Part shown: piece by piece, positions 1 to 42,217 of the stretch
Layout: every line of letters begins with the position of its first letter
How positions within the stretch are numbered: the first letter of the stretch is position 1
UHGV virus genome: UHGV-0267411
Direction: 5' to 3' (one strand)
DNA from: a virus
Length of the DNA: 42,217 nt
Translations under genes and position numbers: made by a program
The notes under the pieces: generated by a model
The model's database searches: none
Seen by the model: only the letters and a program-made list of their open reading frames with translations
Told to the model about the DNA's origin: nothing

Positions 1-3000
1 AAACTTTGAGCGATCGACAAAGCAATCGTCTGAAGCGGCTGGTGATAACTTTGCAACAGGTGTACGTAAAGCTCGTCCGAAAGTGACCAAGGAAATCGAT
101 GCGATGGTGAATGAGATCAACGCCAAGATGGGACAAGCAAAAGCAGCACAAGAAAAGGTTGCTTATCTGAAATCACAAAGGCAAACGGCATCCAGTCAAG
201 GAGATACAGGGAAAGTCGTTAAATACGATGAACAAATCGCTCGAGCGCAAGCTCAGATGACAAAATTCCAAGATCAGGCTAAAGGCATGGGTAATACAAT
301 CAAACGTGAATTAGACGCTGTTCCATCTTCCTTGGAAAATATAACAAAAGGCATGAACCAAAACGAAGCCCAAATTGAAGCGATGCGAAAACGAATTCGG
401 ACGTTGAAGGCGGAGTACAATGATCAACGTGTGCCAACTGGCAGCTTTACATCTGGATTCAAGAATTATGAAGATACTCCTCAATCACTGAAAACATCTG
501 GCGAGATCCAAAAGCAATCTATCAAGATGAATAAGCTGATTAGCGACAACGATCGATTACAAAAGGAATACGCACAAACAGAAGACCGCGCAGACGCACT
601 GAGAAAGGCGCTACAGCGTGTTAATTCTGCATTAGGGCAATCATCTATCCAAACGGGCAACGCTTCTAGCGGCGCTAGTATGACAGGTACAGGATTGAAA
701 CAATCTGAACGGGCTGTTTCTAAATATGGCGGTGTATTCAACCGCATGTCCAATGCTGTTTCTCATGGATTTGGGAGTGTCGGGAATGGCTTAAAGAACT
801 CTCTTGGGTTTATTGGAAAGTTCGGAAGTCTATTTTCTAGTAACTCCAATAAAGTAACGGCCGGAACAAACAGAATGACTGGAAGCACAAATGCTTTTGG
901 CCAGTCAATGAAATACTTACTGCCTTCATTAGTTGTTTATCAACTATTAGGCGGTGCAATCACCAAAATGGCCAGCGGTATGATGTCAGCTTTGAAAACA
1001 AACGATCAATTCAGTAATTCATTGAATCAAATCAAAGTTAATCTGATGACTGCTTTCTATCCAATCTATACTGCAATCTTGCCAGCGCTAAATGCTCTTA
1101 TGAGCACCGTAGCACAACTGACAGGGCAGCTTGCTTCATTTATTGCAATGTTATTCGGGACAACCTATGACGCGGCAAAACAAGGCGCTAGTGGACTGTA
1201 TGACAATATCCAAGCGTTAAACGATACTGGTTCATCAGCAAGTAAAGCAAATGAGAAAGTCAAAAAGCTGCAACGATCGTTAATGGGATTTGATCAAATC
1301 AACAAGCTAACGATGAATACTGATGATGCAAAGAAAGAAGATCCTGCTCCTGGTATTGATTTTGGGTCTGCAACTGGTAACTATTCTACGCCTAAATGGA
1401 TGAAAGACATTCAAAACATATTGAAGGATTTCTTCAAACCTTTCCAAGACGCATGGAAAAACCAAGGTCAAAAAGTCATTGATGCTTGGAACTATGCGCT
1501 AGGCGAGGTTATTGGTCTTGCTTCAGCAATTGGTAAGTCCTTTATGGAAGTGTGGACGAATGGAACTGGACAGAGGTTTATCGAAAACATCCTTATTCTT
1601 TTGGTGGATGTACTAGGAATCATCGGCGATATAGCTGGTGCGTTTAAGCGAGCATGGGAAGATAATGGGCGAGGTACCCGATTAATCCAGTCTTTCTTTG
1701 ATATGTTTAACCGCATTCTAGAATTGATCCATGAAATCGCTGATGCCTTTAGAAACGCTTGGAACGATGGCCGTGGAGAAAGTATAGCTGCCAATATTCT
1801 TGAAATCTATACGAATATCTTCAACACGATCGGCAACATAGCTGAACAGTTGAAGAAAGCTTGGAAAGAGGGCAAGGTTGGGGAGTCTATTTTCGGCACT
1901 ATTCTTGATGCAGTAGATGATTTGCTAGGCAATATAAACGACATGACCAAAGCGACTGAAAATTGGGCAAAGAATCTTGATTTCACACCATTACTCAAAG
2001 CTATAGATGGGTTATTCAAATCGATTCGTCCTATCCTGAAAAATGTTGGCGATGGGCTTGAGTGGTTGTATAAAAACGTATTGTTGCCACTGGCAAGTTT
2101 TTACATTGAAGACTACGTGCCCAAATATTTTGATTATCTATCAGCTGCTCTAGATGTGCTGAACCAAGTGATTGAGATTTTCAAACCAATCTTTAAATGG
2201 TTCTGGGATGTCGTTATTGTTCCTCTTGCTCAGGTGGCTAAATTCCTGATTATTGGACAAATTGAACTCTTGACAAAAGGGTTAGAATTCCTTGCTGGTG
2301 TGTTAGAAAAAGTTGCTAACGCAGTTAAGAATCCTAAAAAAGCGATTGGTGAATTGAAAGATGTCATAGATGACAAGTTTGGCAGCATCATGACTTTTGT
2401 TTCTGATACTTGGGGAAATGTTCAAAAATGGACCAGTGATACTTGGGCCAACGCCAAGAAAACTGTTTCGGAAAAAGCTTCTGATATTTGGAAGAATGTT
2501 AGCGGACGATGGAGTGACATCAAGAAGAATACCAAAGAAACTTGGGATACTTTTACTACAGATGTATCAAACAAAGCAAGAACTGCTAAGGATAATGCAT
2601 CTAATCGATTACAGGAACTTAGAACGAATATTTCTGATCGATGGAGTAACGTCAAAAAGAATACCGTTGAAAAGTGGAATGAGATTCAAGATAAAGTTAC
2701 AACAGCAGCAGGTAATGCAAAAGCAAAAGCAAGCACAGCGTTTTCTAATCTTAAGACTAGCATGGGCGGATCTTTTGAAACAATGAAGAAAAATGCTTCT
2801 GAAGCTTTCGATAAAATCACTGGTTGGGCTACAGGACTTGGCGAAAAGATTGGTAAAGGCTTGGGAGATGGTGTTAAGTCTGTTAAAGAAGGCGCAGGCA
2901 AAATTTTCAATGGCATGGTCGGCGTTATCGGAAAAGGTGTTAACGGTGTTATCAGTGGCATTAACTGGGTTTTAAGCAAAGTAGGGGCAGGAGGCAGCGC

Positions 3001-4669
3001 TCTGAAGAAATGGACCATTCCTACTTATGCTAAAGGTACTGGGTATCATCCAGGAGGACCTGCTTTAGTAAATGATGGTTTAGGAGCTAATTATCAAGAA
3101 GCTTATCGGACACCTGATGGACGTACTGGTATCTTTCCAGCGCAAAGAAATCTGATGGTTAACCTTCCAAAGGGAACATCCGTCTTGAGTGGTCCCAAAA
3201 CCGCTGCAATGTATGGCGTACCTGCTTACGCAAACGGTGTAGGTGAATGGTTAAAAGAGAAATGGGATGGTGCAAAAGAGATCGCATCGGATATTTGGTC
3301 TTATGCATCAAATCCTAAAAAACTTTTAAATGCAGCAATTTCGAAATTTGTAGATTTAAAAGGTGCTGTTGAACCGGCTTTGTCGATGGCTAAAGGTTCC
3401 GTGGGTACGATTGCGGAAGGATCTTATGAATGGTTTAAATCGAAGTTCGATGCAGGTTATGAAGCACAAAATAGTTCGTTTGATGGATCAATGGGGAGTT
3501 GGGGTGTATACAAATACCTATATGATATCGCTAGAAAAACTGTCGATCGATATCCTGGTATGAGAATCACTTCTGGGTTTAGACCAGGTGATCCACATTC
3601 CCACGGAAAGCATCAAGCAATTGATGTTGCCTATCCAGCCAGTATGAACGGATCTTCGAAATACTTTGCTCCAGCGAACTGGGTGTTTGATAACTTTGCT
3701 TCAAAAGTAGCTTATGTAATCACTCAAGGTAAAGTTCGAGACCGAAAAGGAATGTCTGGTACTGGATCAAGCGGAAGTTGGGTAAGATGGCCGCAGAATG
3801 ACCACTACGATCATTTGCATATCAACGGCTCACTCGGAGCAAGCGACATAGACAAGAATGCTTCGTTTGGTGCATCTGGAGGTGCAGCAGTTGCTGGTCA
3901 GTATGGTTCATCAGTAGAAAGATGGCGATCGACTGTCAATAGCGCATTGAACAAACTAGGGATTTATTCACTAGCCAATGCAAATCGCACGCTTTACCAA
4001 ATGAAGACTGAATCAAACGGTAATCCTAACGCTATCAACAATTGGGATATCAACGCCAAAAATGGCACACCTTCTAAAGGGTTGATGCAAGTTATTGATC
4101 CAACCTTTAGAGCGTATGCACGTAGTCCGTACAACAAGAATATTTGGGATCCAATGTCTAATATCTTGGCATCTATGAGATATGCTTTGAGTCGTTACGG
4201 GTCGCTTGCGTCAGCGTACAGAGGTGTGGGCTATGAGAATGGCGGACTAGTTACTCAAGACGGTTTATATCGTATGGGAGAAGGCAATAAGAAAGAGATG
4301 GTCATTCCGTTAGAGAGACCTCAACGTGCTGCTGAATTGATCCAACAAGCTGTTGAGTATCTTGGACTTGATATGTTCAACTCAAGCCTTGTTTTGCCAG
4401 AAATGTTCACAGAACCGGCAAGTGTATCTAGCATGTCTTCAAGTTTCAACAACCAAAGCGCACCTTCTCAATCGATGGGAACAGATGAGCTTTATCGCAT
4501 TCTATTGATGTTGTTGAATCGTCCAGGTAATGGAGGCGGCGACAATTCAACTCCGACAAGGACTGAAGTAAACCTTAAAGTTGATCGTGCTACCTTAGCC
4601 ACAGTTGTACTAGAAGAAATAAAAAAAATTGAGAAACAAACTGGCGTTAATCCAGTAATCGGAAAATAG
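1..4669 (+). CDS. Tail tape-measure protein, C-terminal ~1556 codons (5' part lies at 41994-42217 if the sequence is circular); carries M23-like peptidase and lytic-transglycosylase (SLT) domains
   Basis: Frame is open from nt 2 (N F E R S T K Q... before the GTG at 83) and in phase with the ORF that leaves the window at 42217. Long coiled-coil/Gly-Ala-rich TMP-like sequence. M23 motifs 'HQAID' (HxxxD) and 'DHLHI' (HxH) near nt 3540-3850. SLT motifs 'TESNGNP' and 'GLMQV' near nt 3900-4240. Lies between the tail chaperone genes and the distal tail genes. Confidence 0.85.
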   Translation, partial: NFERSTKQSSEAAGDNFATGVRKARPKVTKEIDAMVNEINAKMGQAKAAQEKVAYLKSQRQTASSQGDTGKVVKYDEQIARAQAQMTKFQDQAKGMGNTIKRELDAVPSSLENITKGMNQNEAQIEAMRKRIRTLKAEYNDQRVPTGSFTSGFKNYEDTPQSLKTSGEIQKQSIKMNKLISDNDRLQKEYAQTEDRADALRKALQRVNSALGQSSIQTGNASSGASMTGTGLKQSERAVSKYGGVFNRMSNAVSHGFGSVGNGLKNSLGFIGKFGSLFSSNSNKVTAGTNRMTGSTNAFGQSMKYLLPSLVVYQLLGGAITKMASGMMSALKTNDQFSNSLNQIKVNLMTAFYPIYTAILPALNALMSTVAQLTGQLASFIAMLFGTTYDAAKQGASGLYDNIQALNDTGSSASKANEKVKKLQRSLMGFDQINKLTMNTDDAKKEDPAPGIDFGSATGNYSTPKWMKDIQNILKDFFKPFQDAWKNQGQKVIDAWNYALGEVIGLASAIGKSFMEVWTNGTGQRFIENILILLVDVLGIIGDIAGAFKRAWEDNGRGTRLIQSFFDMFNRILELIHEIADAFRNAWNDGRGESIAANILEIYTNIFNTIGNIAEQLKKAWKEGKVGESIFGTILDAVDDLLGNINDMTKATENWAKNLDFTPLLKAIDGLFKSIRPILKNVGDGLEWLYKNVLLPLASFYIEDYVPKYFDYLSAALDVLNQVIEIFKPIFKWFWDVVIVPLAQVAKFLIIGQIELLTKGLEFLAGVLEKVANAVKNPKKAIGELKDVIDDKFGSIMTFVSDTWGNVQKWTSDTWANAKKTVSEKASDIWKNVSGRWSDIKKNTKETWDTFTTDVSNKARTAKDNASNRLQELRTNISDRWSNVKKNTVEKWNEIQDKVTTAAGNAKAKASTAFSNLKTSMGGSFETMKKNASEAFDKITGWATGLGEKIGKGLGDGVKSVKEGAGKIFNGMVGVIGKGVNGVISGINWVLSKVGAGGSALKKWTIPTYAKGTGYHPGGPALVNDGLGANYQEAYRTPDGRTGIFPAQRNLMVNLPKGTSVLSGPKTAAMYGVPAYANGVGEWLKEKWDGAKEIASDIWSYASNPKKLLNAAISKFVDLKGAVEPALSMAKGSVGTIAEGSYEWFKSKFDAGYEAQNSSFDGSMGSWGVYKYLYDIARKTVDRYPGMRITSGFRPGDPHSHGKHQAIDVAYPASMNGSSKYFAPANWVFDNFASKVAYVITQGKVRDRKGMSGTGSSGSWVRWPQNDHYDHLHINGSLGASDIDKNASFGASGGAAVAGQYGSSVERWRSTVNSALNKLGIYSLANANRTLYQMKTESNGNPNAINNWDINAKNGTPSKGLMQVIDPTFRAYARSPYNKNIWDPMSNILASMRYALSRYGSLASAYRGVGYENGGLVTQDGLYRMGEGNKKEMVIPLERPQRAAELIQQAVEYLGLDMFNSSLVLPEMFTEPASVSSMSSSFNNQSAPSQSMGTDELYRILLMLLNRPGNGGGDNSTPTRTEVNLKVDRATLATVVLEEIKKIEKQTGVNPVIGK

Positions 4670-4681: not shown

Positions 4682-5044
4682 ATGGCAAACTTAAGTATCA
4701 ATGGGAGCGTGGTCAAGCCACCCAAGACTTTTTCAGCAAGCATTCAAACTATTGATGCTGATTCTACCGGAAGAAACGCCAGCGGGAAAATGATCAGAGA
4801 TATAATCGCAGAGAAAGTAAAGCTTGATATTGCTTGGGGACCACTATCTGATAGTGAAATATCACAAATACTATCAAAAGTATCTGCTGCTTTTTTCTCG
4901 GTTTCATATCCTGATCCGCAAGTTGGTGGAAATACAACTAAAAGATTTTACGTAGGGGACAGGACTGCCGCTTCATATTCTTGGAATGATAAGTTTCAAG
5001 CTATGAAGTGGGAAGGTCTAACCCTAAGTTTTATTGAGGAGTGA
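4682..5044 (+). CDS. Small tail protein (120 aa), possibly a minimal distal-tail (Dit) belt-domain-like protein
   Basis: RBS GGAGGGTGG 6 nt upstream of ATG. Sits immediately after the TMP. Pattern 'ING...GRNASG...W...YVGDR...SW...LTLSF' resembles the Dit N-terminal beta-sandwich, but the protein is far shorter than a typical Dit. Confidence 0.4.
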   Translation: MANLSINGSVVKPPKTFSASIQTIDADSTGRNASGKMIRDIIAEKVKLDIAWGPLSDSEISQILSKVSAAFFSVSYPDPQVGGNTTKRFYVGDRTAASYSWNDKFQAMKWEGLTLSFIEE

Positions 5045-5048
5045 TTAT

Positions 5049-6788
5049 ATGTTGAAATCAAGTATTAAATTCAATGAAGCTTTCGAGAAAAACGAACGTA
5101 AAATTTATGCACGGGTCACTATTAATGATCAGTCATTTACTGAAGCTGATATTTTCAATATAAAATTTGAATCTGGAAGTATAAACGGACCTGGTTATCA
5201 AATCGGGTCTGTTTTTTCTGATTATGTCTCGATAACTTTAGATAAGGTTATCCGTGGAATCAATGAGTTGGATCAAGTGATCGTAGAGTTGGGTATTGAA
5301 CGGGAACAAAAAACAGGTTCTGAAGCAAGAAAATATGTGAATAAGACTAACAAAATGAGAACAGGCGGCTATCTGAATAAGATTTTTTATGAGAACCCAA
5401 TTGAATACGTTCGGTTAGGTACTTTTTTTGTTAGCGAGCATGTAGATGTTGACGAGAACGAAAAAACAACAACTATAAATTGTATGGACTCAGTTTTGTT
5501 TCTGGAAGGCACATACAATCCAACGGTAACTTTCCCAGCCAAGCTATTTGATGTAGCCGCAGATGCGTGTTATCAAGCAGGTGTTGCTATGGATGTAGAA
5601 ACATTCTTACAACTGCCAGATAAAACAATCACAACTAAACCAACAGACTTAACCATTAGGCAAATGTTGGGTTATATTTCCCAGTACGTAGCAGGATATA
5701 TCAAGTTTTCTAAATATGATGTACTTCAACTAAAGAGTGGTAGCGATACTGTGAAGATTATCAATACAGATTTGTACTATTCGAAAGGCCTAAGCAAAAA
5801 TGATTTGAAATATAAAATCAGTGGATTGACAAATTCTCCAGCGGGCGATTCGGCTAGTATAACAGTTGGATCTGCCACAGGTAATCAATTAGAAATCGAT
5901 AATCCGTTTGTTAGTAAAGCTGATTTGCAAGATATATTTTCGCTGCTTAGCTCGATTGAGTACTATCCGTTCAATATTGAATGGCGTGGTATCCCTTCGA
6001 TAGAAGCGGGAGATTGGATGATTGTTGAAGATATCGAAGGCAATCAATACAAGATACCTAATTTGAAATACAGTCTTTCCTATAACGGAGGGTTGCGTGC
6101 GACTAGTTCGGCAGAAGCGGAAGCAGTTTCGAACGCAACAACAGCGTATAAGAGCAAAGCTGATTCTGGGGTCAAAGCTGTAGCAGCTCAAGTAGCAAGT
6201 GTTAAAGATGAAATGATCAATAAAGAAAAAATTATTGAACAGATTAATTTATCCGAGGAAAAAGATCCCGACAATAATACATTGCGAATAACCCCCAATA
6301 AAATAAGAATCAGTATGAATACTGAAATTGATGATAATTCTATTGAGGGAGAAAAAATCAAAGAGGTAAAAGCCGATAAACTTGTTGGGGAATATAGTGG
6401 CGATGAGTTGAAGGTTAGCTTCGATGATCAGTCTGTTGAAACTAAGATTAACGATAAAAACAAAGTTATGTTGTCAAACGGTATGATTTCTCTGCATAAC
6501 GCTGGAGAAATTATTTCAAATTTATCTGCAGACCAAATAAGGAACCCAGTTATATTCGATAGTGATTTAGCGATACAAGCTATAAAAAACACCGATGTAG
6601 TTTCGTTTGAGTATTTGGTAAATGGATATAGCAGCTTAGGGATATTGCTTTCTAATGAGTTCGTAGCAGACAGCTCGATTATAGATTTAGACGGAACTGT
6701 TTCCGAATCTAGATTAATATATTTACTTTTTTCAGCTATTAAAAATTTAGAAATAAGAATATCAGAACTTGAAGGAGCAGATGCATAA
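5049..6788 (+). CDS. Tail tip protein (Tal/Dit-family tail protein), 579 aa
   Basis: Start chosen at ATG 5049 with RBS GAGGAG 8 nt upstream (the ORF track start at 5034 overlaps the upstream stop). Position TMP - small protein - this - RBP. No enzymatic motif seen. C-terminal coiled coil. Confidence 0.5.
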   Translation: MLKSSIKFNEAFEKNERKIYARVTINDQSFTEADIFNIKFESGSINGPGYQIGSVFSDYVSITLDKVIRGINELDQVIVELGIEREQKTGSEARKYVNKTNKMRTGGYLNKIFYENPIEYVRLGTFFVSEHVDVDENEKTTTINCMDSVLFLEGTYNPTVTFPAKLFDVAADACYQAGVAMDVETFLQLPDKTITTKPTDLTIRQMLGYISQYVAGYIKFSKYDVLQLKSGSDTVKIINTDLYYSKGLSKNDLKYKISGLTNSPAGDSASITVGSATGNQLEIDNPFVSKADLQDIFSLLSSIEYYPFNIEWRGIPSIEAGDWMIVEDIEGNQYKIPNLKYSLSYNGGLRATSSAEAEAVSNATTAYKSKADSGVKAVAAQVASVKDEMINKEKIIEQINLSEEKDPDNNTLRITPNKIRISMNTEIDDNSIEGEKIKEVKADKLVGEYSGDELKVSFDDQSVETKINDKNKVMLSNGMISLHNAGEIISNLSADQIRNPVIFDSDLAIQAIKNTDVVSFEYLVNGYSSLGILLSNEFVADSSIIDLDGTVSESRLIYLLFSAIKNLEIRISELEGADA

Positions 6789-9383
6789 ATGGTTTATCAA
6801 AGACATTATTGGAATGATTATGACGAAAATAAAACAGAAACACAGAATATAGAATCTGGCGCGGTTGTTACTACGGAAAAATTAAATGAAATTGAGGCAG
6901 GAATAGTGTCAAATCAAATTGACATGGATCGAAAAAAAGCTGACAAAAGCTACGTTGATTCTATGCTTTCCTCAATTGCGCAAGGTGGTCCCAGAGAAAT
7001 TTTCTATTCACTGGACGCATTGAAGAGCAAGTATCCTACAGGATCTGAAGGAACATATCTTGTTTTCGATAGTTCTCTGACTGATGGTGCGCATTCTTAT
7101 ATTTGGGATAAAGCTGCTAGCAATTGGAAAGACCTTGGCATCTATCAAGCAATGGCTATTCCGGAAAAAGTTATACGTGAGATTAATTTAAATTCAGATT
7201 TTTCGAATGTTCTATTAACACAAGGAAAAAACCTATTAAAAAACACAACTTTTCAAAATGGAACCAATAGTTGGGCTAGCTCTTCAACTCCAAGTGCTAC
7301 ATTATCTGTTGATCAAAACCAACAAACACTTACCAGCACAGGTACTGGAACAAACGCTAATGTAATGTTTTATCAAAACTTGGACACTGTTGATGTAAAA
7401 AAAGATCATACTTATTACTTTTGTTCGCTTGGATATGTAACAAATAGTAATTGTGATGAGATCAGGGTAGATTTCTGCAACAATACATTTTCGTTTTTAA
7501 AACCAGCTGCTAATCAAATTTATCGGTTGCAAGGCATACAAAAATTAATCACAGAAACCTATCGCTCAATGAACACACGTCATATTTATGCAGATGCGAG
7601 CACTGCTTCTGGAAAGGCACTAGTGATTAGTAGACCGATCGTTGTAGACTTAACGGATATTTTTGGTAGTGGAAATGAGCCGACATTAGAAGAATGCACA
7701 TGGTTATTTGAAAACTATGCGGAGTATTTTGAAGAAGGGAAAGTGTTCTTTTCAGTGTCAGAAACAGTGACTAAAAAAATATTGGAGTCAACACAAAAAA
7801 TATCTGCTTTGAACGAAGGAGTGGATTTGTCAAAACTAGTCTTAAACAATCTATTTCCTAATGCAAGATTGAACAACTCTAGTTATTGGGTAACCACATC
7901 TGTTCCAGATACAATTATTTCTGCTTCAGACGGAGTTCTAAAACTAATCGGCAATGGATCGGCAAATACACAAAGAGCTTTCGTAAATTACCATTTAAAA
8001 GACGGCAATGCCTATTACTTAAGAATGATAGTTAGAACAAGAAGTGCGTGCCAAAAGATTAGAATTAGTCAGAATGCGACAGAGATAATGGCTATTGATA
8101 ATCCTGTAGTTGATCAATGGTATGAACTAAAAGTGTTATCCGACGAGTTATCGGAGAATAGTATTTATATTCGTGCTAACTATGATACAGCTGAAAGTGC
8201 CAACGGATCGATTATTGAAATGACAAAACCCATTATGATCGATTTAACAAATGATGTGACAAATATTCCAACAATGAGTCAGCTTGAAAATGTTTTTTCG
8301 TACACTGGTGATTGGTTTGCGACAAGTGCCGCAATTAGTAAGAACAAATACACAGTAGCGCTCGTTGAGTCTTTAGATATGAGGCAAGAAACCCAAAATG
8401 CAGCTGAACAGAGTTTGTTTTACAATACCATAAATTCGATTCCGGCTCATGATGGAAGCGAAGCGATTGATATAGAAGAACTCACGACGGATACCTTTTA
8501 TCCTATGTGGGATACTTTGATCAACAGTACGTCCTATCTAGAAAAAGTTATTTTAGGTAAAGACCAATCAAATACTTGGGATATTTGGCAAGTCAAAACG
8601 ATGCCAGTTGCGCCAAAGTACAAACTGCTGATGACTTGTAATGTTCACGGACATGGTCCGGGAGGAGATCCAAGGGATGTTGGTGTAGCATTATATTATT
8701 TCATTAAAGATTTAGTACAAAATACTATAAAAAGTCCACAGCTGGAATGGCTTTACAACAATGTTCAAATGATTTTTATCCCTGTAGCAAATCCGTCGGG
8801 ATTCAATGTGACTGGGCGTTACAACTCAAGAGGAGTAGATATCAATCGCAATTTTGATTACAACTTCCCAGAAAATCCAAGCGCTGTGTTTGGAACTGCC
8901 CCGTTTTCAGAAGTTGAAAGTCAGTATATAAGAGATATGGTTCTAGAAAATCTGGATGCTGATGGCTATGTAGATCTTCATTGTTTTATGAACGATCCTA
9001 TTTCTCTGCTATTTCCTGCATACTCTGGCGACAGAGTGGGGATTGGGTGGAAGACACTGAACGAAGTGGCGATGCACATGACGAAGAAATACGGCGGTTC
9101 TAGGTCAATTGATGTTACTGACACGCCAGCAACAATTCGTAAATGGGTAGAAAATGTAAATGGAATTGAAGCAATTACGCCTGAAGGAACAGTCTATATC
9201 GAAGGAGAGATTCCGCATAGCTCCCTAGGATTAACCAGACTAACTGAGTGGTATGGGAATAATATCTACCGATTTATTTATACTATTCCGTGGAATAAGG
9301 ACTATTTTGTCACTAAAAACGGTTCTAAATTTCGCCAAGTTATTGCGGATGATGGAACAATTAGCACATTATTAATCAACTAA
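6789..9383 (+). CDS. Baseplate/receptor-binding-like tail protein with BppU-like N-terminus and C-terminal M14-like zinc peptidase domain
   Basis: N-terminus 'YQRHYWNDYDE...TTEKLNEIEAGI' is typical of the upper-baseplate/tail-fibre proteins of Gram-positive siphophages. C-terminal region has 'GVDINRNF' (M14 DxNRN motif), 'VDLHCF' (third Zn ligand context) and an atypical 'NVHGHGPGGD' where HxxE is expected. Confidence 0.55.
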   Translation: MVYQRHYWNDYDENKTETQNIESGAVVTTEKLNEIEAGIVSNQIDMDRKKADKSYVDSMLSSIAQGGPREIFYSLDALKSKYPTGSEGTYLVFDSSLTDGAHSYIWDKAASNWKDLGIYQAMAIPEKVIREINLNSDFSNVLLTQGKNLLKNTTFQNGTNSWASSSTPSATLSVDQNQQTLTSTGTGTNANVMFYQNLDTVDVKKDHTYYFCSLGYVTNSNCDEIRVDFCNNTFSFLKPAANQIYRLQGIQKLITETYRSMNTRHIYADASTASGKALVISRPIVVDLTDIFGSGNEPTLEECTWLFENYAEYFEEGKVFFSVSETVTKKILESTQKISALNEGVDLSKLVLNNLFPNARLNNSSYWVTTSVPDTIISASDGVLKLIGNGSANTQRAFVNYHLKDGNAYYLRMIVRTRSACQKIRISQNATEIMAIDNPVVDQWYELKVLSDELSENSIYIRANYDTAESANGSIIEMTKPIMIDLTNDVTNIPTMSQLENVFSYTGDWFATSAAISKNKYTVALVESLDMRQETQNAAEQSLFYNTINSIPAHDGSEAIDIEELTTDTFYPMWDTLINSTSYLEKVILGKDQSNTWDIWQVKTMPVAPKYKLLMTCNVHGHGPGGDPRDVGVALYYFIKDLVQNTIKSPQLEWLYNNVQMIFIPVANPSGFNVTGRYNSRGVDINRNFDYNFPENPSAVFGTAPFSEVESQYIRDMVLENLDADGYVDLHCFMNDPISLLFPAYSGDRVGIGWKTLNEVAMHMTKKYGGSRSIDVTDTPATIRKWVENVNGIEAITPEGTVYIEGEIPHSSLGLTRLTEWYGNNIYRFIYTIPWNKDYFVTKNGSKFRQVIADDGTISTLLIN

Positions 9384-30468: not shown

Positions 30469-30471
30469 TGT

Positions 30472-32374: not shown

Positions 32375-32583
32375 CTGATATGCATTACTATTACATCCAA
32401 CTATCAGTAGGAATACTAAGGCATAAGAACATCCGACAAGCGGAGTTGAAACCAAAGCACACGTTGCTTGAATGCTATGGGCAGTTTAGTGACGAGTATA
32501 TCGATCGACATAGGTTGATATACATCGGACATGGCTGGAAGAGTGATCCGCATATTGTGGAGAGGTTGAACAGATATTTATAG
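32371..32583 (+). CDS. Hypothetical protein (70 aa; may start at ATG 32380)
   Basis: Track start is GTG. No motif recognised. Confidence 0.35.
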   Translation: MTDMHYYYIQLSVGILRHKNIRQAELKPKHTLLECYGQFSDEYIDRHRLIYIGHGWKSDPHIVERLNRYL

Positions 32584-32600
32584 AAAGGTGATGATGGAAA

Positions 32601-34395: not shown

Positions 34396-34408
34396 GAGAG
34401 GTGATATT

Positions 34409-35827
34409 GTGGCAATAGTAGTTAACAGACAGATAGCCGGTGACTTAAATAACCCATCTGCTGAGTTACTTAATTATTGTATCCAACAGCACATGATGGA
34501 ATTGGCGAGACTAGAAAGGCTATCAGATTATTACGATGGTAAGCATGACATTCTTAATCGCAAAAAAGAAAATGATGCAGCGCCAAATAATAAAGTGTTG
34601 ATCAACCATGCTAAATATGTAGTGGATATGAATGTTGGTTTTATGGTGGGTAATCCGATTTCTTATGTATCTGAATCAGATAAGAACATATTGCCAATCT
34701 TAGATGCTTATGACAGGATTGACATTGTTTCTCACGATACAGAATTGGAGAAAGACCTATCAACGTTCGGCGTTGGTTATGAACTTGTGTATCTAAACAA
34801 GACAAAGGAAAACGATGGAACACAATTAGAAATCAAATGTATTGATCCTAGAGGTATTTTCTTAGTTACGGATGATACAGTAGACAAGAACCCTTTGTTT
34901 GCGGTTCATTATCAACCCGTACTAACGCTGCAAGGCGCCATAGATCACTATGTGGTTAAATATTACAACGACAATCGAGTGATTACGTATCACGCAAGCT
35001 CTAGGGGATTTGGCGAATACTTACTAGTGGATGCCAAGCCACATTACTTCAAGGCAGTGCCAGTCATTGAGTATCGGAATAATGAAGAAAAGCAAGGAGA
35101 CTTTGAACAAGCCATTTCTTTGATTGATGCATACAATCTACTCCAATCCGATCGACTAAACGACAAAGAAGCTTTTGTGGATGCAATTCTATTTATAAGG
35201 GGATTTACTTTGGAAGATGGTGATGGTGAGAAGCTAGCGAAAGAAAAGATGCTTCAAACGGCTGCAATGCCTAATGAAGTAGACGCAGGGTATCTTACCA
35301 AGGAATTAAACGAGGACGGCGTTAATCTTTTACGATCAGCAATCCTTGACGATATCCATAAGATTACCTATGTACCAGATATGAATGATGAGAAATTTTC
35401 TGGAAATGTCAGTGGCGAAGCAATGAAATATAAGTTGTTTGGCTTGCTGCAATTGATGTCCGTTAAATCGCGTTACATGATTAAAGGGTTGAGAAAGCGG
35501 ATGGAATTATTCGAAACAATCTTGAAGGTTAAAGACAATTCAATTGATGCGCAAGGAACTAAGATCAAACTCAAGCCTAATTTACCTGTAAACACTAGCG
35601 ATATCATCAATCAAATTGTCAGTGCTTACCAAGCTGGTATCTTACCGCTTAAAGTTCTTCTAGGATGGTTGCCAGATATTGACGATGTTGATGAAGTATT
35701 GAAACAGTTGAACCTTGAAAAAGAAGAAGCTATTGTGATGAACCAGAAAGCATTAGGTGTGCAAGCAGAAGATAGTCATTCGGATTTGGATGATGAGCCG
35801 GAGGAGGACGAAGAAGATGAAAGCTGA
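34409..35827 (+). CDS. Portal protein (SPP1 gp6-like)
   Basis: Start at GTG 34409 after terL stop 34395 (RBS GAGGTG). 'LNYCIQQHMMELARLERLSDYYDGKHDILNRK...PNNKVLINHAKYVVDMNVGF' is the typical portal N-terminus. Acidic C-terminal tail. Confidence 0.8.
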   Translation: MAIVVNRQIAGDLNNPSAELLNYCIQQHMMELARLERLSDYYDGKHDILNRKKENDAAPNNKVLINHAKYVVDMNVGFMVGNPISYVSESDKNILPILDAYDRIDIVSHDTELEKDLSTFGVGYELVYLNKTKENDGTQLEIKCIDPRGIFLVTDDTVDKNPLFAVHYQPVLTLQGAIDHYVVKYYNDNRVITYHASSRGFGEYLLVDAKPHYFKAVPVIEYRNNEEKQGDFEQAISLIDAYNLLQSDRLNDKEAFVDAILFIRGFTLEDGDGEKLAKEKMLQTAAMPNEVDAGYLTKELNEDGVNLLRSAILDDIHKITYVPDMNDEKFSGNVSGEAMKYKLFGLLQLMSVKSRYMIKGLRKRMELFETILKVKDNSIDAQGTKIKLKPNLPVNTSDIINQIVSAYQAGILPLKVLLGWLPDIDDVDEVLKQLNLEKEEAIVMNQKALGVQAEDSHSDLDDEPEEDEEDES

Positions 35828-36116
35828 AATTTTGTTGACTAATGATGAAGTTATAGTATTTGAACCAAAGTGGCTTAATATGAAAGTTGGTTTAAGTGAA
35901 ATGCTAAGCGGTTTGAACAAACTTGATGTTAAAGTTTTCGAGTGCTTAGATGTTCAAGGGACTACGCATTTTATAAATATGAATCAAGTAATCAGAATAT
36001 CTGAATATACTGGCAAAGAAAAAAATGAAGTTGGAATCAAAATCGATCGAAGTGATTTAAGTAAAGCAGTAAAAGAATTTATCGATCAAACTAATTATGG
36101 CAATCCGGCAACATAA
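35817..36116 (+). CDS. Hypothetical protein (99 aa) between portal and head-morphogenesis gene
   Basis: ATG 35817 with RBS GGAGGAGG. Overlaps the portal 3' end. Confidence 0.4.
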   Translation: MKAEILLTNDEVIVFEPKWLNMKVGLSEMLSGLNKLDVKVFECLDVQGTTHFINMNQVIRISEYTGKEKNEVGIKIDRSDLSKAVKEFIDQTNYGNPAT

Positions 36117-36129
36117 AGGAGCTGATTAA

Positions 36130-37278
36130 ATGGCTCAAAAGAAACGCAAGCTATCTTATTGGGAACGGCGTAACATCGACGCAGAACAAAAGATAAACGA
36201 TGGAGCAATCAAAGTTGAGGAAGCTGCAGCGAAGGCTTACAGGCAAGCACAGACTTACTTAACCCAAAAGGTTAGGAAGTTATTTGCACGCTCTCAACAA
36301 CGCTCTGGGCTATCTGAGGATGAAGCTAAAAGGATACTAAATCAAACGACGTCAGTTGAAGAGTTAGCAGAATTGAGAAAGCTATCTAAACAGATTAAAG
36401 ATCCTGAATTACAAGCTGCAGCTAAAAACAGATTGCAAGCATTAGCATTTAAAGAGCGTATCACTCGTGCAGAAGACTTGAAAGCCAAGTCTTTTTTAGT
36501 TTCTAAGCAAGTTGCAGATGTTCAATTAGAAAAGCAGACAGAGTTCTATGTAGATGCTATTCACGAATCGTATCGTGAGGCAACGGCTGAATCAGTCATC
36601 CGAAAGGCACAAGAGAATGCCAAGAATGGCGTAGTCATTGAAGTATGGAATAAGAAAGATTATCAGTTTAAGGAACTATCGACCAGGTATACGAAGAACA
36701 TCCTCGATAGCCACTGGCATGGATCGAATTATTCTAAACGGATATGGGGTGATACTGAAGCTTTAGCAGCAAGGTTAGAAGAACTGTTCACTGTTGAATC
36801 AATGACTGGCATGTCGGAGTTTGAAATGGCTAAGGCAATAGCTAATGAGTTTGACCGCTCTATTGGTGTTGCTAGGCGCTTGATTCGGACGGAAGCTAAT
36901 TACATGGCTAACCAAGCAAAACTCAAAGCGTGGCAAGATAACGGCGTAAAAGAATACATGTTGGTTGCTGTATTGGACCTACGAACATCTGAAATCTGTA
37001 AAGGAAAAGATCATAAGATATATCGAGTTTCTGAAGCTAAAGTAAACGGTGCTAGTGGTACGTATCCGCCGTTTCATCCATGGTGCAGAACAATAGCTAT
37101 TATGTACAGTAAGCGAACGCTGAAGCTTCCTAGAAACGCTTTAGACCCTATCAGCGGCAAAGTGATTCCTATTAGAGGTGAAACAACCTATAACGAATGG
37201 ATGGATAAGTTGAAAGAAAAGTATTCGGATGAAGAAATAAGAGAACAGAAAAGAAAAATAATGGGATTGAAAGCTTAG
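36130..37278 (+). CDS. Minor head / head-morphogenesis protein (Phage_Mu_F / SPP1 gp7 family)
   Basis: 'SHWHGSNYSKRIWGD', 'VLDLRTSEICKGKDHKIY' and 'PPFHPWCRTIA' are the conserved motifs of this family. Confidence 0.75.
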   Translation: MAQKKRKLSYWERRNIDAEQKINDGAIKVEEAAAKAYRQAQTYLTQKVRKLFARSQQRSGLSEDEAKRILNQTTSVEELAELRKLSKQIKDPELQAAAKNRLQALAFKERITRAEDLKAKSFLVSKQVADVQLEKQTEFYVDAIHESYREATAESVIRKAQENAKNGVVIEVWNKKDYQFKELSTRYTKNILDSHWHGSNYSKRIWGDTEALAARLEELFTVESMTGMSEFEMAKAIANEFDRSIGVARRLIRTEANYMANQAKLKAWQDNGVKEYMLVAVLDLRTSEICKGKDHKIYRVSEAKVNGASGTYPPFHPWCRTIAIMYSKRTLKLPRNALDPISGKVIPIRGETTYNEWMDKLKEKYSDEEIREQKRKIMGLKA

Positions 37279-37379
37279 GCATTGACTAGGCTTTTTGTCA
37301 TGTCCAAGCGTGATGACATTAAAAGCATCGGAAGTGCAAGCATTTATCCACTCTAAAAGATATGGAAGGAGTACAAAAC

Positions 37380-38030
37380 ATGAAACACAAAAAACTGTTG
37401 CCACTTAACCTACAATTCTTTGCTGAAAAAGATGAATCAGATACTCCGGATGATTCTGAAACATCAAAACAGCTAAACGTAGAAGAGTTGAGCGACGAAG
37501 AGATTGCAGCAATCAAAGAGAAGTTTGGTTTCAAGGACGACAAAGAAGTTGACTCTATTGTCAAAAATAAAAAGTCACGCTGGCAGAAAGAATTCGAAGA
37601 AGAAAAGAATGAAGCTGCCCGTTTGGCCAAGCTAAGCGAGGAAGAACGGCAGAAAGAATTGCTAAACAAAGAAAAGACTGCCTTCGAAAAGGAGAAAGAA
37701 GCCTTTCGTCAAGAACAGCTATTCGTAGAAAAAGGCAATCAATTACAGTCGATCGGAATCAGCAAAGAGTTAGCAGCACGCATTAAAGGTGACACCGCAG
37801 AAGAAATTTTGGAAGATGTCAAAACATTCAAGAAAGCATGGGATGAAGCGCTAAAAGTTGCTGTTGATCAAGCGCTATTGAATTCAGTTGATTCACCACT
37901 AGGTTCTAATGCAACTTTGCCTGACACTAATCCGTTTGCTGCGGAAACCTTAAACCTTACTGAGCAGGGAAGATTGCTGCGAGAAGATCCAGAAAAAGCA
38001 AAAGCCTTACAGGCATTAGCGAATAAATAG
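37380..38030 (+). CDS. Scaffolding protein with Prp-type N-terminal cleavage motif
   Basis: ATG 37380 with RBS GGAAGGAG. N-terminus 'MKHKKLLPLNLQFFAE'. Highly charged coiled coil. Precedes the capsid gene. Confidence 0.7.
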   Translation: MKHKKLLPLNLQFFAEKDESDTPDDSETSKQLNVEELSDEEIAAIKEKFGFKDDKEVDSIVKNKKSRWQKEFEEEKNEAARLAKLSEEERQKELLNKEKTAFEKEKEAFRQEQLFVEKGNQLQSIGISKELAARIKGDTAEEILEDVKTFKKAWDEALKVAVDQALLNSVDSPLGSNATLPDTNPFAAETLNLTEQGRLLREDPEKAKALQALANK

Positions 38031-38045
38031 AAAGTGGGAGAAAAA

Positions 38046-39080
38046 ATGAAAAAAAGTTTAATGAAAATGAACTTGCAGTATTTTGCTGCTAAAACAAAAA
38101 TCGAAGATGTCATTGTACCAGAAGTCTTCAATCGTTACGTTATTGAACGTACTGCTGAATTATCAGCGTTGTACCAATCGGGAATCGTTGTGAAAGATCC
38201 AGAATTAGATGCTTTGGCAACTGCTGGTGGTAAGTTAATCAATATGCCGTTTTGGCAAGATTTAACTGGTGACGACGAAGTGTTGTCTGATTCCGAATCA
38301 CTAGAAACAGATAAAATCACTGCTGGTCAAGACGTTGCTGCTCTCTTGATGCGTGGTAAAGCTTGGAAAGTAAATGATTTATCTAAAGCATTGTCTGGTG
38401 ACGATCCTATGCGTGCAATTGGTGACTTGGTTGCGGCTTATTGGGCCCGCCGTCAACAAACTACGTTGCTAAGTGTCTTAAAAGGCGTGTTTGGCGCCAC
38501 AACTACTAAAATGGGTGACAACAGCTTAGATATTTCTGCTGAAACAGGTAATGCTGCTGCGTTCACTGGTGAAACGTTCTTGGATGCTTCATACAAATTG
38601 GGTGATGCAGAAGAAAAACTGACTGCAATTGCTGTTCACTCGTCTGTATATGCTAACTTGCGCAAACAAAATTTGATTGAATTCTTGTTAGATTCAAACA
38701 ACACGAAAATCCCAACTTACATGGGTAAACGAGTGATCGTTGATGACGGTATGCCTAATACTGGCGGTGTGTTCACATCTTACATCTTTGGACAAGGTGC
38801 TATCGGTTTAGGCAACGGCGCTGCTCCAGTCCCTACCGAAACAGATCGTGATGCATTAGCTGGCGATGATATCTTGGTTAACCGCCAACATTTCTTGTTA
38901 CATCCACGTGGAGTTAAGTTCACAAGTAAGTCTGTTGCTGGTTCTTCTCCAACAAACACTGAGTTAGCTACTGGCGGTAACTGGGAACGTGTATACGAAT
39001 CTAAAAATGTTCGTATCGTTCAATTCAAGCATAAACTATGGACACCGACTACTACGATCGCTGGTGGGACTGGCGAATAA
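38046..39080 (+). CDS. Major capsid protein with Prp-type N-terminal cleavage motif
   Basis: ATG 38046 with RBS GTGGGAG. N-terminus 'MKKSLMKMNLQYFAAK'. 344 aa. Position after the scaffold. Confidence 0.75.
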   Translation: MKKSLMKMNLQYFAAKTKIEDVIVPEVFNRYVIERTAELSALYQSGIVVKDPELDALATAGGKLINMPFWQDLTGDDEVLSDSESLETDKITAGQDVAALLMRGKAWKVNDLSKALSGDDPMRAIGDLVAAYWARRQQTTLLSVLKGVFGATTTKMGDNSLDISAETGNAAAFTGETFLDASYKLGDAEEKLTAIAVHSSVYANLRKQNLIEFLLDSNNTKIPTYMGKRVIVDDGMPNTGGVFTSYIFGQGAIGLGNGAAPVPTETDRDALAGDDILVNRQHFLLHPRGVKFTSKSVAGSSPTNTELATGGNWERVYESKNVRIVQFKHKLWTPTTTIAGGTGE

Positions 39081-39091
39081 GGAGTGAAATC

Positions 39092-39418
39092 ATGGACGAG
39101 AAACGAGATGAAGTTATTTCAGTACTAGCTGAGCAATTGGAGATATCTCCTATCTCAGCAACAGTATTGATCGAGGACGCTGTCGCACTCGTCCTTGATT
39201 ATACTGGTCGTGAAGCGATGATTGACAGTATGTGGGTATATGCAAGACAACTTGCAACAATCGCATACAACCAACAGGGCGCTGAAGGTGAAGCTTCAAG
39301 GTCTGAAGGCGGCGTGTCGCAGTCTTTCTTGACCGACATTCCAGTCTCTATTCAACGTGGCTTGAACAGATTCCGAAAGGGAAAGGTTGTGAGTTACTAT
39401 GCGCCTACTGAAGAATAA
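39092..39418 (+). CDS. Head-tail connector (gp6/gp15-like)
   Basis: ATG 39092 with RBS AAGGAGTG. 108 aa. Position after the capsid gene. Confidence 0.5.
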   Translation: MDEKRDEVISVLAEQLEISPISATVLIEDAVALVLDYTGREAMIDSMWVYARQLATIAYNQQGAEGEASRSEGGVSQSFLTDIPVSIQRGLNRFRKGKVVSYYAPTEE

Positions 39419-39749
39419 CCTACAAACTGTTTATCTAAAGAGGCGGAAAGTCACTCTTGACGAAGAAGCAGAAGAAATAATCACTTACCCATTCGAACCG
39501 ATTGAATTACAAATGAATGTGCAAGCTGCAAGCGGTACGGTAAACGCTCAGATCTACGGTAGCAAGCTTGAAACAATGAAAGCTTGCAAATACCAAGGCG
39601 ATACGATTAATGAGGCGCAGAACGAACTAGATGGCGTTTGCGTATATGTTGGCAAAGGTGAAGAACCAGACTTCACAATCAAGTCTATCCAGACATTTTC
39701 TACCCATAAAAATATTATGCTAGAAAGGAATGATAATCGTGGGCGTTGA
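39399..39749 (+). CDS. Head closure / head-tail adaptor protein
   Basis: Assigned by synteny. 116 aa. Confidence 0.4.
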   Translation: MRLLKNNLQTVYLKRRKVTLDEEAEEIITYPFEPIELQMNVQAASGTVNAQIYGSKLETMKACKYQGDTINEAQNELDGVCVYVGKGEEPDFTIKSIQTFSTHKNIMLERNDNRGR

Positions 39750-40281
39750 AATCAAAGGCCTGGAAAGCTTACGGCGCAAAGTCAAAGCAATACCGCAAAT
39801 TTTAGATGATGCAATGTGGGATGCGACTTTTGAAATCACTGAATTGATCAAACAAGCTGCTGAATTGCGGTTATCATCTAGCATGAAATATTCTAGTGGT
39901 GAATTGTTGGGTAGTTTGAAAAACGAAGTCGTGATTAATGCACAAAATCAAATTGTTGGGCGCGTGTGGTCGGATAAGCAACAGGCTATGTTTCGAGAAT
40001 TCGGGACCGGTCCAGTCGGCGAAGCTAGTCCTAAAGACTTGCCAGACGGAATTACACCAGTTTATTCGCAAACAGCATGGTTTATTCCAGCGAAAGATGT
40101 CGCGGTGGATTTGGAAGCTATATACGGTATTCCTCGTGTGACTGTTCAAGGTACAGACTTCTACATTACCAAAGGACAGCCAGCACGACCATTCTTGTAT
40201 CCTTCTTTAGTAGATTTGATTGGTGAAGCACCAGAAATCTACAAAGAGCATGTACAACGCAAGTTAAGGGAGTTGAAGTGA
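39739..40281 (+). CDS. HK97 gp10-like tail-component protein
   Basis: GTG 39739 with RBS AAAGGA. 'VGVEIKGLESLRRKVKAIPQILDDAM...REFGTG' matches the family pattern. Confidence 0.55.
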   Translation: MGVEIKGLESLRRKVKAIPQILDDAMWDATFEITELIKQAAELRLSSSMKYSSGELLGSLKNEVVINAQNQIVGRVWSDKQQAMFREFGTGPVGEASPKDLPDGITPVYSQTAWFIPAKDVAVDLEAIYGIPRVTVQGTDFYITKGQPARPFLYPSLVDLIGEAPEIYKEHVQRKLRELK

Positions 40282-40643
40282 TGGAACGAGTGAATATGAA
40301 GACAGTCACTGTTGAAGTATTACAATCCGTTGCAGCTATCAAAAAGATTGCTACGGACTATCCTTCAACTTGGAATACATTCCCATTGGCTATCTACCGG
40401 ACAGCTAACAAGCCACATCAGATTGATTCATTAGGTAAAGAGTTACAAACAGAATGGACAATCACAGTTGAATTATACGGAGATAAAAGCCAGACCAGTA
40501 TTGCTGAAAGTGTTTTAAGCACATTCGGTAGTATTGGTTTTTCTGGTACCGCTAAAGATGCTAACACAGCTGATCTAAAGCGAATCATCGTTGAAGTAAC
40601 AGCTGTAGTTGATAATGTTACGAAATATGTATACAAAAAATAG
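40278..40643 (+). CDS. Tail completion / terminator-like protein
   Basis: Assigned by synteny, directly before the major tail protein. 121 aa. Confidence 0.4.
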   Translation: MMERVNMKTVTVEVLQSVAAIKKIATDYPSTWNTFPLAIYRTANKPHQIDSLGKELQTEWTITVELYGDKSQTSIAESVLSTFGSIGFSGTAKDANTADLKRIIVEVTAVVDNVTKYVYKK

Positions 40644-40655
40644 GAGGAATTACAC

Positions 40656-41081
40656 ATGGATTTTGCAGGACTATTATCAAAGGGTACCGTCTTAACCTAC
40701 GAAGATGGTGCAACAACTAAAACTGTAGCAGCAGTTAAATCTATCCCAGCATTGGGTAATGACCCAGAAAAAGTGGACGTTACACACTTGGGATCAGAAA
40801 AGAAATCTTATATCAAAGGTATCGAGGATACTGACAACTTAGAATTTGCGATCGTATATCAAGGAGATAACTTCCGTGATATTCACGCACTAGTTGAAAC
40901 TGGAAAATCTGTTGATTGGACAATTACGTTCCCAGATGGAATGACATCAGAATTTACGGGAGAGCCTTACTACAAATTCGACGGGGTAGAAGTTAACCAA
41001 GCGGTCGGCTTTAACTTAGGGGTAGTTGTGAGCGATGGTCCAGATATTACTCCAGCTCCTGCGCCGTCGCCCGGGGAGTAA
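40656..41081 (+). CDS. Major tail protein (141 aa)
   Basis: RBS AGGAGGAAT upstream. Position before the chaperone pair. Pro/Ala-rich C-terminus. Confidence 0.6.
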   Translation: MDFAGLLSKGTVLTYEDGATTKTVAAVKSIPALGNDPEKVDVTHLGSEKKSYIKGIEDTDNLEFAIVYQGDNFRDIHALVETGKSVDWTITFPDGMTSEFTGEPYYKFDGVEVNQAVGFNLGVVVSDGPDITPAPAPSPGE

Positions 41082-41177
41082 CAACCCCTGAAGATACCAC
41101 AGGGGACAATGCAGACGAATCGGAGACTGAGGAATAATCCTTGGTCTCTATTTTTTATAAATTAGGAGGAAACATAC

Positions 41178-41585
41178 ATGCCAAAAAACAACATAGTACA
41201 AATGCCAAACACTAAATCATTTCAATTAGGAGAGCTAAATTTACAACTTCGTTTAGACGGTAAATCGATTTTAGCAATCGAAAAGCGCTTAGATGAAGGG
41301 ATTATGGGACTGTTTGTTAAAAAACAAGGCGAAATCAAATTACCACCAGCCAACAGTTTATTGATTATCTTACAAGGCGCCAATAAAACAAGCGGCGTGA
41401 CAGATAAAGCAATCGTTGATGCGTTCGAGCAATACATTGAATCAGGCAAAACAACCATGGATCTATTTGGTGAAATCAATGACTTCTTGGATGAAGCTGG
41501 TTTTTTCGGAAAGAAAGAAACGGCGAACGAAGCGACAGATGGGGAATCTTTGGATCAAATGAACAGCGAAGACAGTCTTCTGTAA
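41178..41585 (+). CDS. Tail assembly chaperone (G-like)
   Basis: RBS AGGAGGAAAC upstream. 135 aa, acidic. Sits between the major tail protein and the TMP. Contains the slippery heptamer near its 3' end. Confidence 0.7.
   Translation: MPKNNIVQMPNTKSFQLGELNLQLRLDGKSILAIEKRLDEGIMGLFVKKQGEIKLPPANSLLIILQGANKTSGVTDKAIVDAFEQYIESGKTTMDLFGEINDFLDEAGFFGKKETANEATDGESLDQMNSEDSLL
41501..41507 (+). promoter_or_regulatory. Candidate -1 programmed frameshift site T-TTT-TTC giving the G-T fusion
   Basis: Heptamer aligned X-XXY-YYZ in the G frame (GGT-TTT-TTC). The -1 frame is open from 41495 through ATG 41609 to 41983. Confidence 0.5.
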
Positions 41586-41608
41586 AAAACTTCGACAATC
41601 TTTCCGAA

Positions 41609-41983
41609 ATGCTTGAATACATGTATCCACAAGCTGTTGAAGCAGGAATCCCCTCTACAGAGTATTGGGGAATGACACTTGAGGAAATCATGATACAAGT
41701 TCAAGCAAACAAGAAGATCAAGGAAAATGAGTTGCGAGAACGAGCGATGTTCGACTATTCGCAGCAAAGACTAGCGGTTTTTGCATTTAACGATCCCAAA
41801 CATATGCCGAAGTTTGAAGAGGCCTACCCTTTTCTTAAGCAAATTGAGCAAGCGGTTGAAGAAGCGAAAACCGAAGAAGAAACAAAACAAGAAGCTATGC
41901 AACGTGAACAAGAAATATTCTTGGCACAAGCACAGGCTATCAAAGCAACAAGGGAAAGAAAAAATCTCATAGAAGAAAGGTAG
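41609..41983 (+). CDS. Tail assembly chaperone T-like portion (expressed as a G-T fusion via -1 frameshift)
   Basis: ORF lies in the -1 frame relative to the G-like gene and overlaps it. Lies directly upstream of the TMP start. Confidence 0.55.
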   Translation: MLEYMYPQAVEAGIPSTEYWGMTLEEIMIQVQANKKIKENELRERAMFDYSQQRLAVFAFNDPKHMPKFEEAYPFLKQIEQAVEEAKTEEETKQEAMQREQEIFLAQAQAIKATRERKNLIEER

Positions 41984-41993
41984 GTGAGAAAGC

Positions 41994-42217
41994 ATGGAAT
42001 TAGAAACACTTGAAGTCCTACTAGATATCAATACTGCACGAGTTGAGCAATCTTTAGAGAATGTGTTGCCAAAAATTGAGGGTGCAATGAGTAGAATCCA
42101 ACAAATGTCCGGTAACTCAATGGATCGTACAGAGAAAAATATGGATATTGAAAAAGGCGCTAGCAATTTCACGAAACAACTAGAAAAAATGAATCAAGCA
42201 CTAGAAAAGACACTAGC
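41994..42217 (+). CDS. Tail tape-measure protein, N-terminal 74 codons (runs off the 3' end; continues at nt 1 if circular)
   Basis: ATG 41994 after RBS AGGTAGGTGAG. 'MELETLEVLLDINTARVEQSLENV...' has no stop before the window end. The final 'gc' plus nt 1 'a' completes a codon in phase with the ORF at 2-4669. Confidence 0.7.
   Translation, partial: MELETLEVLLDINTARVEQSLENVLPKIEGAMSRIQQMSGNSMDRTEKNMDIEKGASNFTKQLEKMNQALEKTL

Follow-up and report, generated by a model that had tools for sequence, protein, structure and literature searches.

A 42,217-bp gut virus genome, opened inside its tape-measure gene, is one unit of a closed map in attP form, probably that of a temperate Enterococcus siphovirus

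The virus genome UHGV-0267411, the whole 42,217 bp of which are here called the window, very probably belongs to a temperate siphovirus with hosts in the Enterococcus casseliflavus group, present as one unit of a closed map in its attP form, with the record opened inside the gene for the tape-measure protein (TMP). An earlier note, made from the letters of the window, had proposed that the two ends are in-frame halves of one TMP gene coding for about 1630 residues, and that the sequence is a complete, circularly permuted phage genome with a circular or replicative layout, not that of an integrated prophage. The shared gene is borne out by our analysis: the join of position 42217 to position 1 is real and far beyond chance. 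The window is exactly one unit of a closed circular map, with no missing or duplicated bases and no host DNA, and its sequence is the attP form, i.e. that of excised, replicating or virion-derived DNA, and not that of an integrated prophage.

The TMP open reading frame (ORF) starts with an ATG at 41994 (+ strand), following a purine-rich ribosome-binding stretch. Its 5′ part (41994–42217, 224 nt) comprises codons 1–74 and the first two nucleotides (GC) of codon 75, which window nucleotide 1 (A) completes to GCA (Ala75); the 3′ part (1–4669, + strand) then continues in an open frame (2–4669) to the stop at 4667–4669. Translation of 41994–42217 joined to 1–4669 yields exactly 1630 residues with a single terminal stop and no internal stop. 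The joined product begins with MELETLEVLLD, the N-terminus common to the TMPs of the Lactococcus phages TP712 and PLgT-1 and of the Enterococcus phage phiFL3A, and is 55–58% identical to these three proteins across approximately 1230 residues. The alignment with the three homologs is ungapped over approximately 230 residues around junction residue 75, with no residue missing or duplicated at the join. At the nucleotide level, a 3-kb artificial join (1500 nt per side) matched TP712 (27856–30852) and PLgT-1 in blastn as a single full-length piece, and phiFL3A/B as two pieces that together cover 92% of it; the region matched in these phage records carries the major tail protein, two genes at the chaperone position, and the tape-measure gene.

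Public contigs that cross the junction were located by an exact-protein look-up of the product of 41609–41983, which was found in many human-gut metagenome assemblies of the ENA. Compared with the rotated window, a 50,424-bp MEGAHIT contig (L004) has 100% identity for 20.4 kb and a 21,846-bp contig (L005) for 18.8 kb, in both cases through the junction; L019 and L020 (the latter from a 25,947-bp contig) are likewise 100% identical across it. On all four, which come from human-gut metagenome samples, a 1630-residue gene was called whose product is identical to the joined TMP, and the identical crossing contigs stem from two assemblers. A stop codon or a different flanking sequence at the join, either of which would have spoken against the shared gene, was looked for in the identical contigs and not found. 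Coincidence and chimerism are ruled out because the TMP is colinear at the residue level with three homologs and because contigs from two assemblers cross the join at 100% identity.

Comparison of the window ends revealed no terminal direct repeat (the longest k-mer in common is 11 nt), and no internal direct or inverted repeat of at least 30 nt is present within the 42,217 bp; because no repeat of that length exists, the window corresponds to exactly one unit. The full set of modules (lysogeny, replication, packaging, head, tail, and lysis) is represented, and the size is near those of TP712 (42,073 bp), PLgT-1 (40,273 bp), and phiFL3A (39,576 bp). Host DNA is absent from the window, and in contigs of the integrated form it starts only beyond 13618 and 13634. 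Exactly the window sequence is common in public gut metagenome assemblies. With one unit, all modules present and the two ends adjacent, the proposal of a complete phage genome is upheld. Where the record opens within the TMP gene is arbitrary, as when an assembler outputs a circular contig; such an opening is ordinary in assemblies of circular or headful-packaged phages and is no biological oddity.

The earlier note had placed an integrase and an attP-like region mid-window, between the lysis and immunity modules. The coordinates agree, and the attP is genuine: integrase and attP lie between the lysis genes (holin and endolysin) and the immunity genes (15995–16708, − strand; 17004–17204, + strand). 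The tyrosine integrase gene (13720–14859, − strand; PF00589, E 1.1e-24) lies 85 nt from the 17-bp attP core ATGGGCGGCATGATGTA (13618–13634), which is identical in attP, attL, attR, and attB, and which spans the codons for the C-terminal GroEL residues MGGMM and two bases, the first and second, of the stop codon. The longest integrase ORF has 388 codons, with a TTG start; the 379-residue start called in public contigs matched public proteins exactly and is used here.

All four forms of the attachment site were seen, and recombination between attP and the 3′ end of the host groEL gene goes through the 17-bp core, as shown by the attL and attR contigs together with empty attB loci. Contigs with attR (L007–L009) match the window at 100% identity from the TMP gene via the endolysin and a set of small ORFs to 13634, beyond which they carry bacterial genes (DUF697, glycosyltransferase, GntR, GH1, and PTS). 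Contigs with attL (L012, L024, and L026) match it, also at 100% identity, from the replication genes via the integrase gene as far as 13618, where they pass into groEL-groES. In the window attP is uninterrupted, whereas the integrated contigs diverge at 13618 and 13634, in line with the circular or replicative layout that had been proposed. In other samples, contigs of the attP form (L006/L011/L023, L013/L025, and L015) have the same uninterrupted order of integrase gene, attP, and small ORFs as the window; because several contigs show this arrangement, the excised form has been assembled independently in several samples.

When attB is rebuilt from both host flanks, it aligns colinearly and without insertion, at 97% identity, with Enterococcus innesii GAL7 and E. 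casseliflavus NBRC 100478. These sites are empty, and L016 and L017 are the loci with empty attB. Judged from the sequences of the empty sites, the host belongs to the E. casseliflavus group, with which the 94–96% identity of homologs in E. casseliflavus isolates to a 421-residue phage protein (described below) agrees. At attL (L012, positions 12270–12287) a phage TAG replaces the host groEL stop TAA, such that the reading frame is restored and GroEL still ends in MGGMM. In the lysogen, the terminator of the groESL operon is replaced by a hairpin and T-run that the phage supplies shortly beyond the core (13640–13675, + strand), an inverted repeat that is a predicted terminator. To our knowledge, the sole precedent for integration in a groEL gene is mycobacteriophage Bxb1, which enters groEL1 by means of a serine integrase; a search of the literature on groEL as a prophage attB in Enterococcus returned nothing relevant.

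Two 22-nt repeats flank the core, one approximately 110 nt to its left (GGGGCAAAAAAGGGGCAAAATA, 13487–13508, + strand) and one approximately 70 nt to its right (GGGGCAAAAAAGGGGCAAATTA, 13701–13722, + strand), the latter overlapping the integrase stop codon. The octamer GGGGCAAA occurs four times in the 42 kb, and all four copies lie within these two repeats; in shuffled sequence the mean count is 0.98, and four or more copies arose in 2 of 100 shuffles. The repeats stand where arm-type integrase sites are expected, and we infer that they are such sites, the left one being the candidate for the P arm and the right one for the P′ arm. An integrase of the lambda type would then use the two flanking pairs of GGGGCAAA repeats as its arm sites. 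Family searches of the window proteins recognized no excisionase (Xis).

Upon induction, the genome would replicate to concatemers, from which small (TerS) and large (TerL) terminase subunits of the type known from Bacillus phage SPP1 would cut at a pac site near terS and package slightly more than one genome length per head. With headful cutting of this kind, the virion DNA would be terminally redundant and, in part, circularly permuted, and this would be the reason why assemblies close into a circle. Such packaging is likely, given the terminase and head proteins: TerL shares 59.5% identity with SPP1 G2P along its full length, and its nuclease domain matches SPP1 structure PDB 2WBN with 283 bits; TerS is of the same family as SPP1 G1P (Terminase_2); and the portal is 22% identical to SPP1 gp6 (E 9e-16), with an SPP1_portal Pfam match. 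The SPP1-type set of Terminase_2, Terminase_3, gp6-like portal, and MuF protein is thereby complete. In cos-type siphoviruses of Firmicutes, an HNH endonuclease gene adjoining the terminase is common; none adjoins the terminase here. SPP1 is an established pac-site headful packager, terminase family membership predicts the packaging strategy (PMC4168068), and transduction has been reported for PLgT-1, which is related in the structural module (PMC5431838); all three points add to the case for headful packaging. By analogy, a pac site would be expected in or near terS. The description of the genome as circularly permuted therefore stands in part: a closed map opened at an arbitrary point is what the window shows, and physical permutation and terminal redundancy of the virion DNA are likely features, predicted from the SPP1-type terminase.

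Several observations weigh against this account as a whole. Terminal redundancy, permutation, and the pac cut are predictions made from assembled contigs. The attL and attR sites were seen on separate contigs, read with 10-kb flanks, and the equality of prophage and window size is deduced from contig sizes. The 46-mer at the junction has no exact match in IMG/VR. TerS is just 29% identical to SPP1 G1P (E 1e-11), and no DNA counterpart of the SPP1 pac region was found in or near terS. The terminal redundancy or pac site near terS that the earlier note had suggested looking for was likewise not seen in the window, where the repeats around terS are short and could be due to chance. The distant relation of TerS to G1P and the lack of a visible pac site or terminal redundancy would suit virions with unique ends (cos or short direct-terminal repeats), in which case the closed map would still be right, the circle would be the intracellular or excised form, and "permuted" would describe the record only. 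The literature, moreover, yielded no direct statement on pac or cos packaging in phiFL3A, TP712, or PLgT-1. Unique ends are nevertheless unlikely, since the enzyme to which TerL is related over its full length is experimentally established as a pac/headful terminase, since the whole SPP1-type set is present with no HNH endonuclease gene beside it, and since terminase relatedness at this level predicts a shared strategy (PMC4168068).

In a second alternative, suggested by an 84,489-bp SPAdes contig (ERZ1753337 NODE_91_length_84489, carrying L006, L011, and L023), the window is a unit drawn not from a monomeric circle but from tandem copies of the phage, be they those of a double lysogen (attL-phage-attP-phage-attR) or those of a replicative concatemer. 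Its length equals 2 × 42,217 + 55, and its ends, computed by arithmetic on coordinates, fall at window positions 13618 and 13672, at the edge of the att core; its presumed two-unit nature, which also accords with a unit of 42,217 bp, is deduced from its size and from the approximately 25 kb of it that were read (record positions 29986–54968). However, the 55-nt excess equals a usual SPAdes k-mer overlap, a sign of a cycle walked twice, and a branch point in the graph would give the same ends in a sample that contains both attP and attL. From other samples come single attL and attR contigs of 48–64 kb, sizes that fit one prophage copy with its flanks. These observations suggest that the assembler went round the phage cycle twice and stopped at the attP/attL branch point, or else that the contig is a real tandem dimer; a tandem origin of the window is quite improbable, and either way the unit is a complete phage genome with the same sequence content. 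There is next to no likelihood that the window derives from a bacterial chromosome carrying an integrated prophage, or from a chimeric assembly, and that the in-frame TMP halves are coincidental: the phage does integrate, as the attL and attR contigs attest, and nothing else speaks for such an origin, while the window contains no host DNA, reads through as attP, and is crossed at its junction by the colinear TMP and by the identical contigs described above. A phage-plasmid was also considered and rejected, there being no meaningful PLSDB match and no recognized partition genes, and integrated forms having been observed.

With a closed map in attP form as the preferred reading, the record is usable as a complete genome, with terS or attP as a possible starting point after rotation, and the two TMP parts are to be annotated as one gene of 1630 residues and not as two partial genes. 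The analysis further assigns the host to the E. casseliflavus group and places integration precisely at the stop codon of groEL. In human-gut metagenomes the phage is found both integrated and excised, a pattern compatible with spontaneous induction in vivo. The significance is mainly one of bookkeeping, and the current understanding of temperate siphoviruses is unchallenged.

The gene map is based on family searches (Pfam, NCBIfam, etc.) and on gene calls on identical public contigs. The 3′ part of the TMP gene codes for an SLT lytic transglycosylase domain and, directly before it, for an insert of 146 residues (1231–1376; nt 3467–3904) for which the TMPs of TP712, phiFL3A, and PLgT-1 have no counterpart. 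Within it lies an H-x6-D ... H-x-H motif (HGKHQAID ... HLH) typical of zinc peptidases of the LAS/M15 type; the insert has no Pfam match, and a weak one in the PDB (9FLH, "LysM domain-containing protein", E 1.6e-5). Because this peptidase-motif insert adjoins the SLT domain, the TMP may carry two cell-wall-degrading activities. Downstream of it, a block of distal tail genes (4682–9383, + strand) comprises a DUF6711 protein (4682–5044), a 579-residue protein (5049–6788), and an 864-residue protein (6789–9383) with a Peptidase_M14 (zinc carboxypeptidase) domain at residues 634–765 (E 1.1e-13); the peptidase expected in a tail-associated lysin is M23 or NlpC/P60, not M14. The lysis module, also on the + strand, consists of a holin (Phage_holin_6_1, 10242–10577), an endolysin with Amidase_2 and SH3_5 domains (10922–11905), and, between them, an ORF of 102 codons.

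Between the endolysin gene and attP lie five small ORFs on the − strand (11946–13407; 98, 73, 88, 96 [DUF5960], and 106 residues), which remain at the attR end of the prophage. On the other side of attP, the integrase gene is adjoined by a gene for a lipoprotein-like DUF5067 protein of 313 residues (14963–15904, − strand), the N-terminus of which matches lipoprotein families weakly. The five ORFs and the DUF5067 gene occupy the usual positions of accessory ("moron") or superinfection-exclusion genes expressed in lysogeny; such functions are a guess from position. The immunity genes code for an ImmA/M78-like protein (15995–16351, − strand), an HTH_3 repressor (16364–16708, − strand), and a Cro-like helix-turn-helix protein (17004–17204, + strand). 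An antirepressor with pRha/ORF6C domains (17509–18201, + strand) follows, with an ORF of 95 codons between it and the Cro-like gene on the same strand; these three genes are assigned to early lytic control, and those at 14963–16708 on the − strand to lysogeny.

The remaining genes are all on the + strand. A replication and recombination module (19854–25898) includes genes for an ERF recombinase, an HNHc_6 protein, a DUF1642 protein, a DnaD-type replisome organizer (21719–22495), a DnaC/IstB-like ATPase (22500–23342), and a single-stranded DNA-binding protein (SSB; 24666–25136). It is followed by a C5 DNA methyltransferase (26723–27466; PF00145) and a late transcription regulator of the RinA/DUF722 family (29523–29936; TIGR01636, E 8.5e-13). 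The packaging and head genes are those for TerS (Terminase_2, 32601–33080), TerL (Terminase_3 and Terminase_3C, 33073–34395), the SPP1 gp6-like portal (34409–35827), a MuF-like minor head protein (36130–37278), the scaffold (37380–38030), and the major capsid protein (38046–39080). The connector and tail module (39092–41983) contains four small head-tail joining proteins, the major tail protein (40656–41081), a DUF6096 tail chaperone of 135 residues (41178–41585), and a 124-residue protein encoded directly 5′ of the TMP start (41609–41983). In lambda, G and GT form an overlapping pair joined by a −1 frameshift; the two chaperone-position genes here (DUF6096 and the 124-residue protein) are, in contrast, separate ORFs that do not overlap and are divided by a gap of 23 nt.

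Upstream of terS, a stretch of approximately 540 nt (30395–30936) without an ORF of at least 60 codons precedes the gene for the 421-residue protein, and contains two tRNA-like elements on the + strand. Element 1 (30472–30580) is Leu-like; its 7-bp acceptor stem is perfect, and its anticodon loop carries an insert of 27 nt. Element 2 (30703–30774, 72 nt) scores 38.9 bits against the Rfam tRNA family, has a 6-nt anticodon loop, and is reported by ARAGORN as "tRNA-??? (ga)". A scan of 30300–31000 against Rfam at a lenient threshold returned only the tRNA match and noise. Among 35 IMG/VR relatives of the 421-residue gene, the tRNA-like region is mosaic and variably present upstream; element 2 is called "tRNA-Ile(aat)" in four loci and "(ga)" in two, and recurring copies of element 1 usually show stronger conservation at both ends than in the middle. 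The elements are probably decayed tRNA genes; that they are functional RNAs, acting as processing signals in late transcripts or as decoys for host defenses that target tRNAs, is doubtful.

The 421-residue protein itself (30937–32202, + strand) matches no Pfam or NCBIfam family, its one match being phrog_704 ("DNA repair exonuclease"). Its homologs in E. casseliflavus, E. gallinarum, and Leuconostoc carry the name "helix-turn-helix domain-containing protein", a few of them having Myb-like DNA-binding domains, and the position of the gene beside the packaging genes is conserved.

The best nucleotide match in GenBank is phiEG37K of E. gallinarum (LC625742), which is 93% identical in patches of the early and late accessory regions and of the integrase-lysin region, and covers 2% of window positions 1–25000 and 16% of 25001–42217. 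It has a homolog of the 421-residue gene upstream of terS, but its structural module is different and it lacks the region with the tRNA-like elements. The phages phiFL3A/B (Phifelvirus FL3), TP712, and PLgT-1 are, like the phage described here, temperate siphoviruses of 39.6–42.1 kb, and their head-tail modules are colinear with that of the window. By blastn, the genes for the major tail protein, the chaperones, and TMP are approximately 66–69% identical to those of phiFL3A, TP712, and PLgT-1, and TerL is 65% identical to that of phiFL3B. The likeness is, however, confined to the structural module; these phages have other host species, and their TMPs lack the 146-residue domain. A megablast search with the whole window gave no match to phiFL3, TP712, or PLgT-1. 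Under the convention of the International Committee on Taxonomy of Viruses, a genus corresponds to approximately 70% nucleotide similarity over the full length; membership in the genus Phifelvirus was rejected, the tail region alone being alignable. No GenBank phage is close, and by sequence comparison the window represents a new species-level phage of a familiar temperate siphovirus kind.

SPP1 shares with this phage its TerL, the TerS family, a gp6-like portal, a MuF/gp7-like protein, and the gene order terS-terL-portal-MuF-scaffold-capsid, but SPP1 is virulent, has neither integrase nor attP, and infects another host genus. In its integration, the phage resembles the lambda-type tyrosine-integrase systems in which a host gene is targeted at its 3′ end: common to both are a recombinase adjoining attP, an identical core in attP and attB, restoration of the reading frame, and repeats flanking the core where arm-type sites are expected. 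The target here, as a point of difference, is the stop region of groEL; integration at the groEL stop codon with restoration of the frame follows the standard 3′-end-of-gene pattern.

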